Positions 29,467-45,419 of a stretch of DNA of 64,000 bases are shown in pieces. The notes beneath the pieces are model-generated. The model was not told the origin of the DNA, did not search any database, and saw only the letters and a list, made by a program, of their open reading frames with translations. The position numbers and the translations under genes were made by a program. Origin of the DNA: a virus. Lineage: Duplodnaviria; Caudoviricetes. Positions within the stretch are counted from its first letter, which is position 1; each line of letters starts with the position of its first letter. The DNA is taken from IMG/VR virus record IMGVR_UViG_3300043959_000228; one strand, given 5' to 3'.

Positions 29467-30690
29467 ATGAGTAATGATAAGAAAACGACGCCATGGAAGG
29501 GCCCTGTCATTGGTTTGAATCAGCAGGGATATCCTACGCCAGTGTTTTTCGACACTCATACAGCAATTAATATGAAATCAAAATCTGGTGGCATTGTTAT
29601 TGTCGGTGCGCCTGGATCTGGTAAGACGCAATTAGGCGAATCATTAGCTGTCATGAGCGGACTCTCTGGTAAGAAGACTATCTATGTCGATCCGAAGAAC
29701 GACGCTGTGGGTCTGAGTGAATTGAAAGACGAGTTTGACGGTCATCTCGATATTAGGGATCTAAATAGTGGTAAGAAGGATGGATCAATGGATCCATTGA
29801 TTACAGAAATAGATCCAGCGAAGAAAGTTGCCAAGACACTGGCACTTATTGAGATTCTCGTCGGGGAACTAAGCGAAGAACAAAAGATATCCTTACCGCC
29901 AATTGTAACTGACGTTGCCTACGGCGATGACCCATCATTGACATTACTCGTCCAACGACTTCAACGTCATAAGGATAATGCATTAGCAGCCATTGGATCG
30001 ACTTTAAGAACAATGGAGATATCGAACCCCATCTCCGGATTACTCTTTAAACGATCGAGAGAGAAAACGGTCATCAAAGACTTTAACGATGGTCTTACCG
30101 TTTTAATCATCCTTGGACTCAAGATGCCATCACCAGGTTCAGATCCTAAGCAATATAAGTCCGAGGAGCGACTATCACTCGGCATTATGTATCTTATCGT
30201 CGAATTCCTTCTGAGCACAATGTCTGATCAGAATCATAAGCTTGAGCCTAAGACCATTCTTATTGATGAGGCTTGGGCGTTCATTGCCTCCGCTGCTGGT
30301 AGGAATGCTGTTAGCAGTATGTTCCGATTAGGCCGTTCCATGAATACAGCCTGCATCCTCATGACGCAGAATTTATCTGATCTTCAGGCACCTGGTGATG
30401 AATCGGAGAATAATTCATTATTGAATTCCGCTGTGACCAAGTTTGCGTTTAGGACAGACGATCCTAACGAAATCAAAAAGCTCTGTGAGAATTTAGGCAT
30501 TAGCTACGCTGCATTTGGAGAGCAATTCCAAGAATTAGAGTCAGGATGCTGTATTATGAAGGATTATTTAGGACGAGTAAGCAGAATATACATCATCCAA
30601 CAGAATGAACGATGGAAACACGCTTTTGAAACGAATCCATTGAAGAAGCAACAGCAACAGGAAGCCATTGCGTCACAGGAGGAAGAGTAA
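29467..30690 (+). CDS. VirB4/TcpF-like ATPase, C-terminal (P-loop) half only
   Basis: PVFFD, GAPGSGKT, VDPKND, IDEAWAF, RLGRSMN, TQN, KDYLGR; no N-terminal domain. Confidence 0.85.
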   Translation: MSNDKKTTPWKGPVIGLNQQGYPTPVFFDTHTAINMKSKSGGIVIVGAPGSGKTQLGESLAVMSGLSGKKTIYVDPKNDAVGLSELKDEFDGHLDIRDLNSGKKDGSMDPLITEIDPAKKVAKTLALIEILVGELSEEQKISLPPIVTDVAYGDDPSLTLLVQRLQRHKDNALAAIGSTLRTMEISNPISGLLFKRSREKTVIKDFNDGLTVLIILGLKMPSPGSDPKQYKSEERLSLGIMYLIVEFLLSTMSDQNHKLEPKTILIDEAWAFIASAAGRNAVSSMFRLGRSMNTACILMTQNLSDLQAPGDESENNSLLNSAVTKFAFRTDDPNEIKKLCENLGISYAAFGEQFQELESGCCIMKDYLGRVSRIYIIQQNERWKHAFETNPLKKQQQQEAIASQEEE

Positions 30691-38408: not shown

Positions 38409-39596
38409 ATGGCTAGAATTAAGAAATCTGAAACACCTACTTCTACTAATGACGTCGACGCGCCAACTGTTGAAGCGTCAAGATTGAAAGCCATTGCTAA
38501 AGCAACGAACGGCATTAATGATAAGTATGGAGAGATGTCCGCGTTCTTCCTAGGAAGCAATCCTAGAGTTGAAGTCAAACGAGTCAGCACCGGATCCCTG
38601 GCGCTTGATTATGTCATTGGTGGCGGTGTGGCTAATGGTCGTATCCATGAGTTCTTCGGACCAGAAGGATCCGGTAAGACATCAGCGGCCCTACAGACTG
38701 TTGGCAATGTGCAGAAAGAAGGCGGTGTCGCCGTTTATGTTGATGTGGAGCACGCTATGGATCCTAAGCAAGCTCATCGTTTAGGTGTTGATATTAATAA
38801 GCTGATTTTCAGTCAGCCAAATAGTGCTGAACAGGCCTTGAATATCATGGCCACCTATATCAAGGCCGGTGTTGACATTATCGTGTTGGACTCGATTGCA
38901 TCCCTCGTTCCACAGGCTGTTATGGATGGAGAAGCCGAGGATCAAACCGTGGCGTTAGTGGCGAGGCTCATGAGTAAGAGCCTATCGAAGATTGCTACCC
39001 TAGCTGGAGAATCTGGCACTAAGGTCATCTTCATCAATCAGGTACGAGCGGCTATCGGTGGATATGGCAATCCAGAGACAACAACAGGTGGAAAAGCTCT
39101 CCCCTTCTATTCGTCTATCCGAGTACGAATCAGTAAGGGCCAGCAGATTAAGAAGAAGGTCCGTGGAGAGGAACGTCCTATTGGTCAGAAGGTTTTCTTC
39201 CGATGCAAGAAGAACAAGGTGTCCACGCCATTCCTCAATGCTGAATCAGAATTCTACTGGAAGGATGGCTATAACACACCATACGATATTGTCACGTTCG
39301 GTAAGAAGTACGGTGTCTTCAATTCTACCTGCTCAAAGGATCTTACCGAGAATCCTGAGGGTGAACAGATCATGTGGAATGGACAGAAGGTCACCAAGAC
39401 AGATATGCTCGCAGATGCTATTCGTGATAAGTCTTCAGGTCTCGAGGAAAAGTATTATCCCATCGTCTTGAAGCGTATGCTTGAGGATCAGAATTTCGAT
39501 GATGATGACGATGATGACGCCACGAAGGACGAGAACGAGGAAGCCTCACAGGACGTTGCGATATCTGAGGACGCTATTGAGGATGTAGTTGATTAA
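38409..39596 (+). CDS. recA: Recombinase RecA
   Basis: STGSLALD, GPEGSGKT, DVEHAMD, DSIASL, FINQVR, GNPETTTGGKALPFYSS, KNKV. Confidence 0.97.
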   Translation: MARIKKSETPTSTNDVDAPTVEASRLKAIAKATNGINDKYGEMSAFFLGSNPRVEVKRVSTGSLALDYVIGGGVANGRIHEFFGPEGSGKTSAALQTVGNVQKEGGVAVYVDVEHAMDPKQAHRLGVDINKLIFSQPNSAEQALNIMATYIKAGVDIIVLDSIASLVPQAVMDGEAEDQTVALVARLMSKSLSKIATLAGESGTKVIFINQVRAAIGGYGNPETTTGGKALPFYSSIRVRISKGQQIKKKVRGEERPIGQKVFFRCKKNKVSTPFLNAESEFYWKDGYNTPYDIVTFGKKYGVFNSTCSKDLTENPEGEQIMWNGQKVTKTDMLADAIRDKSSGLEEKYYPIVLKRMLEDQNFDDDDDDDATKDENEEASQDVAISEDAIEDVVD

Positions 39597-39617: not shown

Positions 39618-39648
39618 AATGGCTCTACCCATTATGAGTAGAGCCATT
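39618..39648 (+). terminator. Terminator hairpin
   Basis: AATGGCTCTAC/GTAGAGCCATT. Confidence 0.65.
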
Positions 39649-39678
39649 GTCATATATGAAACCAATAATCAAATATGG

Positions 39679-39684
39679 TATAAT
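39679..39684 (+). promoter_or_regulatory. Housekeeping-type -10 box TATAAT (representative, dnaG)
   Basis: TGG-TATAAT-N7-ATG; equivalents at 5530-5535(-), 21462-21467(-), 50548-50553, 58577-58582; also upstream of dnaE (14831), the exonuclease (35475) and telA (36474). Confidence 0.75.
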
Positions 39685-39691
39685 ATCTATT

Positions 39692-41800
39692 ATGGGCAAA
39701 AGAGTGAATTTCGATGAAGCTAAGCGCATTATCAAAGAACGAATTAATCTTGTATCATTCTTTGAGGAAAAAGGATATGACTTACGAGCCTCTGGATCGT
39801 CGAGATATGTGACGCTATGTCCATTCCATCAGGAGAAAACGCCATCATTCAGTATCAGTGAGACGAGAAACAATTGGAAATGCTATGGCTGTGGTAAGAG
39901 CGGCGATGTCTTCACCTATCTCATGGACAAGGAGGGATTGACTTTCCCGGAGGCTATCGAGCAATTAGCCGAGCAATTAGGATTAGACATTGCCAGGGAC
40001 GATAAGGCCGCGGAGGAGAGCAAGCAACGATCAAGGTTGATGCGGATTCTTGCAGACACCTGGTCATGGTTCCGCGCACAATATGATCAACTACCAGAGG
40101 ATCATATCGTGAAGGCCCATGAGATTAGAGAGAAGCGTGGCATTAGCTCGGACGCGAAAGACAATCATATGCTTTTCGGATGGGCTCCTGAGAATGGACA
40201 TCTTCTGCTCAACTATCTACAGGGTGAGAAGTACAGTCTTGAGGACATTTTGGCCGCTGGCGTCATCGACAAGTCTGACCGAGATGGATCGTTATATTGT
40301 CCATGGCGTGGTCGATTGATGTTCCCGGTATGTGATGTTCTAGGTAAGCCATTAGGATTCGTCGGTCGACAGGTCTTCTATAAGCCAGACGAGAAGATCA
40401 AGCGTAAATACATTAACAGTAAGGAGAATGACGTCTATCATAAGCGAGACTTGCTCTTCTGTCAGTCTATAGCGAGGGAGCAAGCTCGAAGAGATCATGA
40501 GTTGTTCGTCGTTGAGGGTCAATTTGATGTCATAGCCATGCAGCATGCTGGCCATGATAATACGGTAGCGTCATCAGGCACAGCTTTAACCGAACAGCAA
40601 GCGCAATCCATGCGACGAATGGTCGGTGCTGATGGTAAAGTCATCTTCATGTTTGATGCTGATGCAGCTGGTCAGAAAGCCGCGTTACGAACATTAGCCT
40701 TACTGGGTCCTATCCAGGCTCAATCATACGCTAGTATTACCGAGGGTAAGGACCCGTCCGATATGTATAAGGATGAGGGGAAAGAAGGCCTCGATCGACA
40801 GGCTCATCAGTACATCGAACTGTGGAGGCACGTGGTCATTCATCTTGCTCAGAATTACGATTTGACAAGACCAGATCAACGTCAAGCATTCCTAGCCACG
40901 TTTAAAGATTCAGTATGGACTCATCTGAATGATGCGAACATCAGTGAACAGGCCGCACGATTAGCCGCTCTGCTATCTGGCATGTCATATTCATCATTAA
41001 TTCAACAGTTAGGCAATAGACAACACGATACCGTTGAACCAAATCGCGACATCATCGTAACCGATCTTTCTCATGATCAGGATCTATCGTCAAATCCTCC
41101 GGCCGCCGCTCTCCTAGCCAATACACTAGAGCATCCTGAATTACGAATCATCCTATCGAAAGTCAGAATGAGTGGATTAGATGAACAAATGAGGACCATC
41201 ATTCTTGAATCAGGTGACAAGAAAATCGTAGCAGAATCATATGACAAGGACTTACACGATTATATTAATCGTTTAGACAGAATCATTGATAAGATGCATG
41301 AGATGGAAAGAGCTGCTCCTATCTTAACCGATCCTTCACAACTCGCCGCACAACAGACACAGGCTCTTCTCAAGGAGAGGATGCAACAACGTAAGGAGAG
41401 CGTCATTGCAAAGAACACGGCGGCGGGTCAAAGTATGAATGCAAGCATTGCAAGAACATATGATGACACCATCCGTCAAGCTATGAGCCATATTGAAGAT
41501 GTCTATCATAAGAACCTTGAAACAGCGAATGAACTCATATCGAAGATCGCTGACGAGCATCAATACAGCCAGCAATTGCGTAAAACGAATGACGATGATT
41601 ATAAGGACATCAAACCACGTCCATACGTCATTCAATTACAGGATGAGATGAAACGTCGTAGGGAAGTTCATATCACGGAATCAATTGATGTCAACGAACC
41701 GGTATTCTCAACCACACCAATGTATAATCATGATACGCCATTCTACGATCCGTCAGACTATGATGATCGTCATGAGGACTGGGCTCCAGACGAGGAGTAA
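39692..41800 (+). CDS. dnaG: DNA primase DnaG
   Basis: CHC2 finger CPFHQEKTPSF...CYGC, RLMFP, KYINS, VEGQFD, FDADAAG; TATAAT-N7-ATG gives start 39692. Confidence 0.95.
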   Translation: MGKRVNFDEAKRIIKERINLVSFFEEKGYDLRASGSSRYVTLCPFHQEKTPSFSISETRNNWKCYGCGKSGDVFTYLMDKEGLTFPEAIEQLAEQLGLDIARDDKAAEESKQRSRLMRILADTWSWFRAQYDQLPEDHIVKAHEIREKRGISSDAKDNHMLFGWAPENGHLLLNYLQGEKYSLEDILAAGVIDKSDRDGSLYCPWRGRLMFPVCDVLGKPLGFVGRQVFYKPDEKIKRKYINSKENDVYHKRDLLFCQSIAREQARRDHELFVVEGQFDVIAMQHAGHDNTVASSGTALTEQQAQSMRRMVGADGKVIFMFDADAAGQKAALRTLALLGPIQAQSYASITEGKDPSDMYKDEGKEGLDRQAHQYIELWRHVVIHLAQNYDLTRPDQRQAFLATFKDSVWTHLNDANISEQAARLAALLSGMSYSSLIQQLGNRQHDTVEPNRDIIVTDLSHDQDLSSNPPAAALLANTLEHPELRIILSKVRMSGLDEQMRTIILESGDKKIVAESYDKDLHDYINRLDRIIDKMHEMERAAPILTDPSQLAAQQTQALLKERMQQRKESVIAKNTAAGQSMNASIARTYDDTIRQAMSHIEDVYHKNLETANELISKIADEHQYSQQLRKTNDDDYKDIKPRPYVIQLQDEMKRRREVHITESIDVNEPVFSTTPMYNHDTPFYDPSDYDDRHEDWAPDEE

Positions 41801-41811
41801 TAAGAATACGA

Positions 41812-43248
41812 TTAAGCGTTCGTGTAAATCATAGCTGGTGCGTCACTCGGTAGTAATCCGTGCTTGTCGTGGATAAGTTCTGTCGCTGGTTCATCGTCAT
41901 GATGATCCTCGTCATCATCATTAACCAGCGTCCATACCAGAGTATGCACATCTAATGGTACAAGGCTCATAGGACAAGTGATGCCAGCCTGCTCTGATTG
42001 ATGCTTATCATCTGGGACAGGCTTACCGTTAGGACCAATAACTGTTTGTAGAACGCCATGATCATCCCTTTCCTTCTTGGCACCCCAACCCTGTCCGGAG
42101 AGATCCCATGTCACCTCTCCATTCACCGAACGGCCTAATCTGATGATATTCCAAGGCGTTTCATCAAGATCCTCAGGCAGTGAGGCAATACTTGGAAGAG
42201 GCGGCATAGCCTTCAACCACACTTGGAGCTTATTGAAATCCCAGCCATTCTTACTGACAATACGACCATTCTTATTCACATCTCTCTGAGCTATCCATTC
42301 GACGGTGTTACCACCAATGGACTGATTAAGGTGTTTGATGAATGCGGGTATGGATTCTTGCATGAAATTCGCGTCAAAGGTAATAACCATTGATGATGGA
42401 ATATCCCTGAAATTCGAGATACGAGGCTTGATGATATGTCCACGTTTATCCTTCGGATGAATAATACTCTCAGCCTCATCAACCTTGCCAATCTCATTTG
42501 CATATACGGTTGCGTCGGCCACGGCCTGAGATTCACCCTTAGCCTCCCATCCAGTGATATTAACCATGTCTTTAATTGTAGCGCCATCGGGGATTGATCC
42601 AAAGTACTTGCGATAGAGAATCTCAATCTTATCCCAAGTCGCCTTGTTCGCATCTAAACAGGCTTTTCCTTCACGCCGCATAATCGAGGCGATGATAGTC
42701 GTCATGATGATAGGAATCAGGAAACCGACATACACATGGATCATCGATATCAAAACACTCACGATACATGATGCTAACAATCCTATCTTATAGGTGGTAT
42801 TCCATGAAGGTATTTTCTTCCCTGGATCAACTGGAAGAGGATTCTTCTCCTTCAGATGAGGATTGCAATAATCTTCATTAAACGCATCAAATCGGTATTC
42901 CTTAATGACCTTATCGTCATCATCCTTAGCCGTGACCATGGCGGCATCATTCGGATCATCGACAATATTGCCCTTAGCGTCTACAGGATTACCGTTATCG
43001 TCCTCTTTAGGAACCATGACCTTCTTTTGAAGACCGATAAGACGATCGTCTTTAAGCGCCATTCCCCAACGACTGGTAAGATCCCTCTTATGGGTTGCCG
43101 TCGTCATGAGATCATCGTATTCTCGAGCATTGCCCTTACGAGCCTTGCTCTTAATCATCGCATCCTTCAGAGCCTCTATACCCCATAACACGATAAATGG
43201 GCTGAATGCCACAATGACGCCTATAATCACTGCGATCATGATATTCAC
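41812..43248 (-). CDS. N-terminal part of an FtsK/TcpA-like coupling protein ending in a putative split-intein N fragment
   Basis: TM segments, PPLP..A, WNIIRLG...VTWD, TCPMSLV and then PLDVHTLVWT in place of the Walker A loop. Confidence 0.6.
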   Translation of the reverse strand: MNIMIAVIIGVIVAFSPFIVLWGIEALKDAMIKSKARKGNAREYDDLMTTATHKRDLTSRWGMALKDDRLIGLQKKVMVPKEDDNGNPVDAKGNIVDDPNDAAMVTAKDDDDKVIKEYRFDAFNEDYCNPHLKEKNPLPVDPGKKIPSWNTTYKIGLLASCIVSVLISMIHVYVGFLIPIIMTTIIASIMRREGKACLDANKATWDKIEILYRKYFGSIPDGATIKDMVNITGWEAKGESQAVADATVYANEIGKVDEAESIIHPKDKRGHIIKPRISNFRDIPSSMVITFDANFMQESIPAFIKHLNQSIGGNTVEWIAQRDVNKNGRIVSKNGWDFNKLQVWLKAMPPLPSIASLPEDLDETPWNIIRLGRSVNGEVTWDLSGQGWGAKKERDDHGVLQTVIGPNGKPVPDDKHQSEQAGITCPMSLVPLDVHTLVWTLVNDDDEDHHDDEPATELIHDKHGLLPSDAPAMIYTNA

Positions 43249-43868
43249 GACGTACCTCCAATCATTGTCCGACGGACCATGGCTGTTGCCCGTCCAATAC
43301 CTATAGATGCGTGAACACGCATACGCAATCCACTCATTGATACCAACGGATCCTCATGATGACAATAAGCATACCTACTATCATACGAGGCGTCAACGTT
43401 ATCCCCTCGAAGCCAGACATATCCATCAGGTATGCGAATAGATGTGCGATCAGTGATCGTACATCCACCAGTATACGCGTTCTCACGCTGATCAAATCCA
43501 GTATGATCTGACGAGCAACCATGCCATGACGATATGACGCCATTCCCTTCAATACACAGAATATCACCAGGAACGGCTATAACTCGCTTCACTAGGTTCT
43601 CATCGTTCGCAATCTTACCAATTGACCATGACTTCGGCCTATCAATGACCACGACATCACCTCTCTGTATGCGGTCATTACGACCAATGAGTATGTCCCC
43701 GTCCTCATACGTATCATGCATTGATGAACCAGACACCGTCCAATACGAGTATGATGTGACTATGGCGTAGCCACATCCGACGACAACAATGATAGCCAGT
43801 ATGCATGCCACAGCTATGATTCGTGACGATAGTCGATACGATCGTTGATGGGCAGCATCCACTATCAA
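43245..43868 (-). CDS. Signal peptidase I (S26)
   Basis: SGSSM, LVKRVIAVPGD, GDN...SYDSR; ATGA overlaps with both neighbours. Confidence 0.92.
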   Translation of the reverse strand: MIVDAAHQRSYRLSSRIIAVACILAIIVVVGCGYAIVTSYSYWTVSGSSMHDTYEDGDILIGRNDRIQRGDVVVIDRPKSWSIGKIANDENLVKRVIAVPGDILCIEGNGVISSWHGCSSDHTGFDQRENAYTGGCTITDRTSIRIPDGYVWLRGDNVDASYDSRYAYCHHEDPLVSMSGLRMRVHASIGIGRATAMVRRTMIGGTS

Positions 43869-45295
43869 TCACCGACTTGATTCAAGACATTGAAACCACT
43901 AGCGCTAAGCATCTCAATATTCGTCGTCTGCATGAAGCTATTCTCTCGAAGGTGATCACCAGGAACCGATTCTAGCATTAAGTCTAGTTGATCATGGAAG
44001 GTCCTGACCAATTTGATGTTGTTCATTGATTCATCATAGAACGAAGTCATCAATTTACAATACTCATTTAATTGATCCTTGGTATCAGCAGTGATAACTA
44101 GACGATACGTACCACTCAGCCAGGGATCCTTGTTCTTGGTTACTTGAGCTTGCATCTGACGACCCTGTTGGACCTCTTCGGTTAAAGCAATGCCGGGATC
44201 GCTGCCAGCCCCCATGGCGTTATCATAGGCGTCAATGGATTGGGCAATGCCCTTCTCGATGTCCTTCTTGATCTTCTTAGCTGGTACGAGGCTAACCCAT
44301 GCTTCCACGTCGAATGGTACGGCCACCTCGGAGAAAATACTCGCGTATATCCATGGAAGCCCATACGGTACGTTCATAGAGTCCTCGGGGAATTGTTTGA
44401 ACGTTAACGTGGTCCTATATCCCGTCATCAAATCGCCATTAATTGATTGCGTGACCTTGACACAGGTAGGATCACTGGTGTCAATGATGCCTCCAATGCT
44501 CTTCATGATGTCACCCCTTCCCCAGACATCATCGTTAATATCGAGGTATGGTGTAGGCATGGCTGGATGGAAGACCTTATTGGTTATCAGGGCAATGTCC
44601 TCAGTTGTTGCTCGGAAACCATTCAACGACGATGATTTCAATGTCGTGTAAATATCCTTCTCCTGAGCCTGCGCATGTCGCAACTCTGACTCTTTAACAG
44701 ATTTATCCACAAATTGCAATGCTTGATCTAAGTATCCTGTAGCGTATCTAAGAGCATCTTTAATGCCAGCATTGAAAGGATTGACCATATCGGTATCTAA
44801 TTCATGTCGCTTACCAAGAACCACACCAAGATACACTCTCTTCTCATAGAAGACGCCATTCTCTAATAACTCTACCTGTTCATTCAAGAACCGCTGAAAA
44901 CCAGATTTACGATGATAATTCTTCGTGACTTCGAGATAGTTGCTCTCCCACTCGTCAACGTTAATAGGCGTATTCGTCACTTTAAGTTTCATATCAAGAA
45001 CCCGCTCTTGATTCTTATTCAAACCAATAATAGCAGAATTTAATCGATTCACATAAGCGACTTTTTTCTCATTCGACAGGAAATCGTAGATCGTAGTGGG
45101 GATCTCATAAAACGCCGTGACCCTATCAGCTGAGAACACGATATTACCAATGACTGACTCTGTACAAAAATCAAGAGCCTTCTTAGGCTGCCTGATACTC
45201 TGACGATTCTTCGCTATGGCCGTAGCCTCGTCAGCTGTAGATGCACGATCATCAGTATCATCGGCATCATGACTCTTCTTGGTATTCCAGAACAT
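43865..45295 (-). CDS. VirB4/TcpF-like protein, N-terminal half only
   Basis: IGNIVFS, YDFLS, RVYLGV, DQLDLMLESVPGD, ends ...NQVGD where the ATPase domain normally begins; no P-loop; ATATCT-N7-ATG. Confidence 0.7.
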   Translation of the reverse strand: MFWNTKKSHDADDTDDRASTADEATAIAKNRQSIRQPKKALDFCTESVIGNIVFSADRVTAFYEIPTTIYDFLSNEKKVAYVNRLNSAIIGLNKNQERVLDMKLKVTNTPINVDEWESNYLEVTKNYHRKSGFQRFLNEQVELLENGVFYEKRVYLGVVLGKRHELDTDMVNPFNAGIKDALRYATGYLDQALQFVDKSVKESELRHAQAQEKDIYTTLKSSSLNGFRATTEDIALITNKVFHPAMPTPYLDINDDVWGRGDIMKSIGGIIDTSDPTCVKVTQSINGDLMTGYRTTLTFKQFPEDSMNVPYGLPWIYASIFSEVAVPFDVEAWVSLVPAKKIKKDIEKGIAQSIDAYDNAMGAGSDPGIALTEEVQQGRQMQAQVTKNKDPWLSGTYRLVITADTKDQLNEYCKLMTSFYDESMNNIKLVRTFHDQLDLMLESVPGDHLRENSFMQTTNIEMLSASGFNVLNQVGD

Positions 45296-45419
45296 AACAT
45301 TAAGATATGTCTACAAGCCATTCTTAGAGCATCGTCATCACGAAGGAATAAAACCCTGGATAATAGTGTTATGCATAATGCTACCACATACTGGTAAAGG
45401 ATATTCAAGGAGGCCTATT

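Follow-up and report, generated by a model that had tools for sequence, protein, structure and literature searches.

A TcpA/FtsK-type coupling ATPase fragment ending in a short class 3 intein stub, probably completed by trans-splicing of separately encoded pieces

Introduction

Among the tools for protein ligation, split inteins hold a central place. To our knowledge, only a few occur naturally, and almost all of these are class 1 inteins cut at the canonical site. Class 3 inteins are marked by a triplet of Trp at block B:12, Cys at block F:4 and Thr at block G:5 (PMC2807308, PMC7891396). Their N-junction is opened by the block F Cys, which is located in the C-terminal intein fragment (IntC) (PMC7891396), and a short N-terminal fragment (IntN) therefore needs no catalytic residue.

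The first natural split class 3 intein, AceL NrdHF, was reported in 2020. It consists of 98 + 48 aa divided at the canonical site, has an atypical MCT triplet and is missing both conserved histidines; no other split form was found among the 1701 class 3 inteins surveyed (PMC7891396). AceL NrdHF shares with the system described here a natural split, a first residue that is not a nucleophile, a block F (C2:4) Cys inside the intein and an origin in metagenomic mobile DNA. It differs in its MCT triplet and in dividing its host gene into two pieces, whereas the present system has the canonical W-C-T triplet with THN, an IntN-a with ~11 conserved residues and, as predicted, three split inteins in one host protein. 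Contiguous class 3 inteins are known from MP-Be DnaB, the Pro1 prototype, and from the type IV coupling protein Bvi IcmO (PMC2807308, PMC5222942). They share Pro1, the WCT triplet and insertion into an ATPase P-loop with the inteins considered here, and Bvi IcmO also has Cys+1; unlike them, these inteins are split and their host is a TcpA/FtsK-type coupling protein rather than DnaB or IcmO.

IntN fragments of 10–12 aa have been engineered by cutting inteins at the S1 site, between strands 2 and 3, and such splits were functional in 4 of the 14 inteins tested (PMC3620165). Natural atypically split inteins have an IntN of 25 aa (AceL-TerL) or 37 aa (GOS-TerL) (PMC11766414, PMC2677866), and charge pairing between fragments has been described for other split inteins (PMC2677866). 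In the fractured genes as outlined by Dassa et al. 2009, each gene is broken in two by a split intein (PMC2677866). Our literature search returned no report of a split intein in FtsK, TcpA, or a coupling or conjugation protein, and the titles and abstracts that it covered mentioned no natural protein joined from more than two pieces by split inteins. Here we describe a virus-listed locus whose coupling protein ORF probably encodes the first piece of such an assembly.

Results

The coupling protein ORF stops before Walker A

The window analysed here is the whole stretch of 64,000 nucleotides from IMG/VR record IMGVR_UViG_3300043959_000228. An earlier note, made from the letters alone, had read one of its ORFs as an FtsK/TcpA-like coupling protein in which PLDVHTLVWT and an acidic tail, 48 aa from position 41958, take the place of Walker A. 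This description of the sequence holds. In the 478-aa ORF, V430 is followed by Pro431, whose codon begins at base 41958, and 48 aa separate this junction from the stop codon at 41812–41814. The ORF, here called piece 1, can be divided as follows (a slash marks a predicted splice junction throughout).

41812..43248, minus strand: proposed piece 1 of the coupling ATPase, 478-aa ORF comprising N-extein, IntN-a, tail and stop codon (from the ORF list)
41959..43248, minus strand: N-extein, residues 1–430, delimited by alignment with P0028 and P0027 up to ...PMSL[IV]
41926..41958, minus strand: IntN-a core, residues 431–441, PLDVHTLVWTL, with P431, L432 and T436 invariant in 18 sequences
41815..41925, minus strand: acidic variable tail, residues 442–478, net charge -10

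A DnaG-type primase gene on the opposite strand converges on piece 1 and ends at 41800, 11 nt from the piece 1 stop, and there is therefore no space downstream for the ATPase half. Scanning the window for a C-half, a Hint C-fragment or an FtsK ATPase (P-loop scan, tblastn and motif scan) gave none.

Taken by itself, the ORF had no match in Pfam, in NCBIfam or in a profile comparison with PDB sequences. Foldseek with its AF2 model returned only non-significant matches, among which TcpA was present four times with E values of 0.5–0.8. The model contains long hydrophobic helices at residues 2–37 and 149–215 and is of low confidence over the last 65 residues. Within the N-extein, two helical segments are hydrophobic; it also contains a soluble domain and ends with ...AGITCPMSLV, which in unsplit relatives is the strand preceding Walker A. 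Its N-domain matches no described family; pCW3 TcpA (6o1z), in contrast to the proposed assembly, is a single polypeptide with no inteins. Pfam did not find the FtsK_SpoIIIE P-loop ATPase domain in the ORF; this domain occurs only in unsplit homologues and in the separate pieces described below. The ORF is to be seen as a fragment of a TcpA/FtsK-type coupling protein and not, alone, as a member of that family.

Piece 1 is the last gene of a three-gene operon in which the ORF ends overlap. Its other elements are:

43245..43868, minus strand: S26 signal peptidase gene, middle of the operon, overlapping both neighbours (Pfam Peptidase_S26, 2.7e-22)
43865..45295, minus strand: TcpF/VirB4-like N-terminal half, operon gene 1 (NCBIfam TcpF, profile positions 9–428 of 813)
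45303..45308, minus strand: ATATCT motif, exactly 7 nt ahead of the operon ATG

The order TcpF N-half, S26 peptidase, piece 1 also occurs in the independent contigs L001, L002, L003 and L005. Elsewhere the window encodes TcpE, both TcpF/VirB4 halves, a T2SSF-like protein and an NlpC/P60 protein. The window ORF thus has two attributes of such a coupling protein, a type IV secretion gene context and an N-terminal membrane anchor. In L002, the ORF adjoining the N-half codes for a surface protein of the LPxTG type and was rejected as a partner.

The break point is conserved and coincides with the start of a contiguous intein in unsplit relatives

Searching 5.8 billion proteins yielded 19 homologues of piece 1, mostly 467–535 aa long and 35–62% identical, none of which had a Pfam domain; GTDB species genomes contained no relative of the piece 1 N-half. 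The alignment of homologues called for in the earlier note revealed both the motif and the break point to be conserved. All of the 18 aligned sequences terminate alike, with ...PM[SGA]L[VI] / PL...T followed by a variable tail. P431, L432 and T436 are invariant, V430 and D433 are conserved in at least 90%, and AGITCPMSLV / PLDVxTLVW is the best-conserved portion of the piece 1 C-terminus. Past the motif, the tails are 10–79 aa long, mostly acidic and not conserved in sequence. In P0016 and P0018 the entire post-junction sequence is just 21 aa, and in the subgroup P0014–P0018 the W is replaced by F and the tail is non-acidic.

A profile search with no length limits against 1.8 billion representatives retrieved longer relatives of piece 1. 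P0028 (859 aa) and P0027 (1106 aa) read ...PMSL[IV] / PLxxxT.IW ... PTHN / CGSTGGGKS and continue into a Pfam FtsK_SpoIIIE domain. Their intein is ~190 aa long, starts with PLSVSTMIWV... or PLAIDTLIWK..., contains block B (..GNHLW..) and block F (..VMCIGV..), and ends with ..IPTHN. The IntN-a core motif opens the contiguous inteins of P0027–P0030, and residue 1, which is non-nucleophilic in class 3 inteins, is Pro in these four as it is in the 18 aligned homologues. When P0028 was compared with the window by tblastn, its residues 1–345 aligned, running 13 residues into the P0028 intein. P0036, a more distant relative, has a canonical Cys1 intein at the equal site.

Since a Pro-start intein lies between ...LV and CG(S/G)TGGGKS in these relatives, PLDVHTLVWTL is homologous to its first strands, and the earlier proposal of a Pro-start class 3 IntN is supported by a contiguous intein at the exact site. 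Judged by its sequence, PLDVHTLVWTL is the first-strand stub of a class 3 intein split at an S1-like site. The conserved part amounts to 11 residues, in keeping with the IntN of about a dozen residues that characterizes S1-type splits, and IntC-a (the partner fragment, described below) begins at the equivalent of approximately residue 13 of the contiguous intein. The FtsK/TcpA-like identity claimed earlier was likewise borne out, through homologues and not from the ORF directly: the C-terminal part of the full-length relatives is FtsK_SpoIIIE, and among solved structures the ATPase part of P0028 is closest to pCW3 TcpA (6o1z, E 6e-15), followed by FtsK.

A complete relative encodes the ATPase in four pieces

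G001 is 419,707 bp long with direct terminal repeats, is rated complete and is listed as viral in IMG/VR; it gave no HK97 capsid match and merely a sub-threshold TerL match. Its piece 1 protein, P0002, shares 60% identity with the window protein, and the gene neighbourhoods of the two match. Four pieces of the coupling ATPase were located in it:

208552-209979, plus strand: piece 1, ...PMSLI / PLDVDTMVWTL + acidic tail
104776-105639, minus strand: piece 2, IntC-a / CGG / IntN-b
100859-101818, minus strand: piece 3, IntC-b / TGGGKS...Walker B / IntN-d
91616-92668, minus strand: piece 4, IntC-d / remainder of the ATPase

Piece 2 starts with MRWMMMPKR.., has block B (..DAGHVWPLD..) and block F (..VQCLRVDSPTHTF..), and reads ..GVPTHN / CGG / PLTLDTIIPL.. 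before ~75 aa more. In piece 3, an IntC-b of 87 aa (..CDEEHLWTV.., ..VRCIRVEH.., ..LLTHN) precedes the extein TGGGKSVAQRN ... VMVDEAGELLDTSSPAK, which includes DEAGELL..SPAK just before an IntN-d of ~120 aa (/ ALAAATIVP.. ..GAQHSWTV..). Piece 4 begins with a 46-aa IntC-d (..IYCIRVDSPNHEF..GVPTHN) / SDDAKAQ..., after which it completes the ATPase. The partner pieces are all intact. The class 3 signature of these inteins is Pro1 or Ala1, block B H.W, block F Cys and THN, and the +1 residues are Cys190 after THN in piece 2, Thr after IntC-b and Ser after IntC-d. IntN and IntC thus lie on separate ORFs, each fused to a part of the host protein.

We joined the four exteins in silico (430 + 3 + 109 + 304 aa) and compared them with the exteins of P0028. 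A single HSP covered all junctions with 39% identity (E 6e-147), and the alignment was collinear, with no gap and no duplicated part. The IntC-a ORF is 103 kb from piece 1 and the four pieces are spread over 118 kb, which agrees with the earlier claim that the partner of the window ORF is encoded outside the window. The accompanying claim, that IntC is fused directly to the ATPase, stands only in part. It is true of a close relative, P0170 (IntC / CGGTGSGKS...ATPase), but in G001, and presumably in the window's replicon, where P0161 would be the corresponding protein, the arrangement is IntC-a / CGG / IntN-b and the ATPase is split again.

The ATATCT motif found ahead of the window operon recurs at these genes. 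G001 contains 25 copies of ATATCT-N7-ATG, compared to ~3 expected by chance, and three of the 25 belong precisely to the start codons of pieces 2, 3 and 4. In L036, a 5.2-kb contig, the motif is found at the ATGs of pieces 2 and 3. Its presence at the piece starts fixes the true N-termini of the IntC fragments, and its placement suggests that the operon and the other pieces may be co-regulated.

The piece 2 family retains the catalytic residues of a class 3 intein

We found 25 homologues of piece 2, of which 21 were aligned (213–427 aa; mean column identity 32%). Invariant in these 21 sequences, P0161 included, are H61 and W63 in block B, C133 in block F, T187-H188-N189 and C190-G191-G192, as well as the glycines of the Hint core. 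The three-residue extein CGG is fixed throughout the family, and at least 90% conservation was found for P193, L194 and T198 at the start of IntN-b. It is this partner family, and not the window ORF, that carries the WCT triplet. Of its 21 aligned members, 10 are matched by Pfam Hint-type models. For P0161, the best PDB folds found with its AF2 model (pLDDT 83.5) were the class 3 inteins MchDnaB-1 (6riy, 6rix) and Msm DnaB (6bs8), with E values of 5e-6 to 2e-4, TM scores of 0.70–0.75 and 17–20% identity.

These data bear on an alternative that we consider improbable, namely that the Hint fragments are splicing-dead and act as non-covalent docking modules in a four-subunit motor whose P-loop is contributed by separate chains. 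The piece 1 tails have net charges of -11 to +3 and are mostly acidic and the IntC-a N-termini have net charges of -1 to +7 and are mostly basic (M.W..RKKR), so that the fragments would be expected to associate in any case. Against this alternative, every residue that serves only the chemistry (block B His, block F Cys, THN and Cys+1) is invariant in the 21 piece 2 sequences at 32% mean column identity, and IntC-b and IntC-d also retain Cys, THN and Thr/Ser+1. Moreover, a Walker A loop that is broken twice by an intein of ~100–280 aa is unlikely to bind nucleotide.

The window's replicon and the layouts found in the family

The piece 2-type protein P0161 (277 aa) and the window protein, P0001, are both listed on contigs with a length of 491,046 bp. 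The same kind of match in size links P0002 and P0157, and these were confirmed to be on one contig. In L036, a P0161 gene identical to the listed one is followed by a DUF4379 gene on the other strand and then by the start of piece 3, which reads MTETTTVTCDERHLWTV...VYTHN / TGGGKSVAQRN.... Pieces 2–4 of the window's replicon are probably laid out as in G001.

Other layouts coexist in the family. P0030 (L005) has intein-a in cis, followed by CGS / PLALDT.., a split IntN-b. Its partner is P0156 (IntC-b / TGGGKS...), located 8.4 kb downstream on the same contig, with restriction-modification genes and a DUF4379 gene between the two. P0170 corresponds to pieces 2 and 3 fused (IntC-a / CGGTGSGKS...SSAK / IntN-d); it and the N-half P0003 are each listed on a contig of 349,703 bp. 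Because P0170 ends with IntN-d, a piece 4 is implied, and none was found for the P0003/P0170 system. The relatives thus form a graded series in which the ATPase is encoded by one ORF (P0028, P0027), two ORFs (P0030/P0156), apparently three (P0003/P0170) or four (G001), and the window's replicon probably belongs with G001 in the four-ORF class. A further type of C-half consists of a 40-aa IntC / Ser of GKS (P0081 and P0100 type), for which the searches gave no N partner. We considered it as a partner of the piece 1 family through a hypothetical middle piece ending in GGGK, and this pairing was ruled out by G001.

That the window's replicon is arranged differently from G001, for example through fusion of pieces 2 and 3, as seen in P0170, or through cuts at other positions, is conceivable given that several layouts coexist and that the 40-aa IntC / Ser-of-GKS type exists. 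We regard it as unlikely because P0161, with its IntC-a / CGG / IntN-b architecture, and the window protein share the contig size of 491,046 bp, and because in L036 IntC-b / TGGGKS comes after the identical P0161 gene.

Far less probable still is the reading, left open in the earlier note, of piece 1 as the product of truncation, decay or faulty assembly, with PL...T.V a leftover or a chance match: no family model matches the ORF by itself and its last 65 residues are modelled with low confidence, but 18 aligned homologues from independent assemblies share the end point and the invariant motif residues, and the gene order recurs on independent contigs, which excludes a one-off truncation or misassembly, the ORF ends overlap inside the operon, P0027 and P0028 have a contiguous intein at the very site, and the G001 partner pieces are all intact.

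Discussion

The window ORF is probably piece 1 of a multi-gene, trans-spliced coupling ATPase of the TcpA/FtsK type that serves type IV secretion. Relatives of the window protein show homology to contiguous class 3 inteins, the architecture of the pieces, collinear exteins and conserved catalytic residues; from these we infer that the pieces are actually spliced.

In the assembly that we propose, piece 1 would provide the membrane anchor, the soluble N-domain and the pre-P-loop strand (...CPMSLV). Its acidic, disordered tail would draw in the basic N-terminus of IntC-a on a P0161-like adapter of 277 aa, and the IntN-a stub would then slot in to supply the first strands that the Hint fold lacks. 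The V430-P431 bond would be attacked by the IntC-a block F cysteine in a class 3 reaction with the branch on the internal Cys, the N-extein would move onto Cys+1, and cyclisation of Asn would free the intein. The adapter would add just Cys-Gly-Gly of Walker A and would be joined to piece 3 through IntN-b. Piece 3 (IntC-b / TGGGKS...Walker B / IntN-d) would in turn be joined to piece 4 (IntC-d / rest of the ATPase).

Each of the three homologous inteins is cut at a different position of the fold, after ~11, ~75 and ~120 aa. Since wrong pairs would lack or duplicate parts of the fold, these different cut positions should avoid mis-pairing, and they would likewise prevent cyclisation of pieces 2 and 3. 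It is possible, though we put it forward only tentatively, that one motor is made from four gene products by three mutually orthogonal natural split class 3 inteins, with a nucleophile-free IntN of ~11 residues, an adapter that contributes CGG only, a putative promoter motif common and private to the genes, and a P-loop that works as a four-input AND gate. In that case the P-loop would be complete only once the four products meet, which would place an AND gate on DNA-transfer activity, and it would show that four dispersed genes can encode a conjugation-type motor, with one of them supplying just three residues.

IntN-a resembles the engineered S1 and the natural TerL fragments in that a very short IntN would dock into a big IntC, and its split position is the S1 site. 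The S1 splits are man-made, belong to class 1 and need Cys1 or Ser1 in the short peptide, whereas IntN-a is natural and has no catalytic nucleophile. In the shortest piece 1 homologues, 21 residues follow the junction, compared to the 25-aa IntN of AceL-TerL. An IntN of ~11 residues without a nucleophile would be the shortest natural one known to us. Because Cys1 is not needed, IntN-a would suit labelling with synthetic peptides. Should the proposed assembly be correct, it would add three more natural split class 3 inteins, with the canonical WCT signature, and together these would offer a candidate orthogonal set, available without further design, for joining multiple fragments by ligation.

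The fractured genes, in the account of Dassa et al., have two adjacent pieces on one strand, in contrast to the four pieces of G001, which extend over 118 kb and include one with a three-residue extein. The two systems are alike in that a free-standing endonuclease-like gene is found between the parts, here the gene for a DUF4379 zinc-finger protein between pieces 2 and 3. The series from unsplit to two-, three- and four-piece forms would allow gene fracture by inteins and endonuclease-like genes to be studied.

As a minor observation, the DUF4379 zinc-finger protein gene was seen between pieces 2 and 3 in L036, and L005 encodes a protein related to it that has a weak REase-like match.

A candidate endonuclease gene beside a split intein

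The gene that opens with IntC-b, the intein C fragment that begins piece 3 of the coupling ATPase, is always adjoined on the opposite strand by a large protein of DUF4379 treble-clef zinc-finger repeats. This arrangement was seen in the complete relative G001 and in the related contigs L036 and L005:

L036:1774-4536, minus strand, DUF4379-repeat protein
G001, about 102-104.8 kb, between pieces 2 and 3, DUF4379-repeat protein
L005:17949-19688, minus strand, DUF4379-repeat protein with a weak REase_MTES_1575 match

The repeat protein is a candidate free-standing homing endonuclease, and its position beside IntC-b resembles the "fractured genes", in which a host gene is broken by a split intein with a free-standing endonuclease-like gene between the halves (Dassa et al, 2009; PMC2677866).

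Further inteins and a fourth insertion site

Stand-alone C-halves of a separate, abundant type (P0081, P0085, P0100, P0121, P0132 and others) open with a 40-aa IntC (..RCIEVDS.DRLFAAGG..[ST]HN) and then resume at the Ser of GKS. Counting this junction, four insertion sites fall inside a stretch of nine P-loop residues. In many of them, Walker B is also followed by an Ala1 intein in contiguous form. We did not find the N partner of these C-halves.

The unsplit homologue P0027 (1106 aa) has a contiguous intein with a low-complexity, Ser/Thr/Asn-rich insert of ~250 aa at the place usually occupied by a homing endonuclease domain. In the N-half homologue P0024 (486 aa), the PLDVNT motif is followed by a tail of ~100 aa whose first ~20 residues are still similar to the contiguous intein; judged by this similarity, the tail may represent an IntN that is longer or in decay. 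Near the unsplit homologue P0028, an NrdD gene (L003:6450-10100, plus strand) has weak precomputed Pfam matches to intein and LAGLIDADG, so several inteins may be present in these elements.

A second divided ATPase gene

The TcpF/VirB4-like ATPase is likewise encoded in two genes, which lie on opposite strands of the window ~13 kb apart:

43865-45295, minus strand, N-half, matching positions 9-428 of the 813-position TcpF profile
29467-30690, plus strand, AAA_10 ATPase half (407 aa), adjoining TcpE

Because no Hint motif was seen at the ends of either half, this gene appears to be split without an intein.

A promoter-like motif, RecA and primase

Throughout G001, ATATCT occurs exactly 7 nt ahead of ATG in 25 cases, versus ~3 expected by chance, and this arrangement is found where pieces 2, 3, and 4 each begin. 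The motif was also located at:

window 45303-45308
L036, 943 and 4659

Its presence at the starts of the three pieces in G001 suggests a private promoter class giving leaderless transcripts.

The element also encodes its own RecA and primase:

window 38409-39596, plus strand, RecA
window 39647-41800, plus strand, DnaG-type primase (717 aa)

Both proteins have acidic C-terminal tails resembling those of the intein-bearing pieces.
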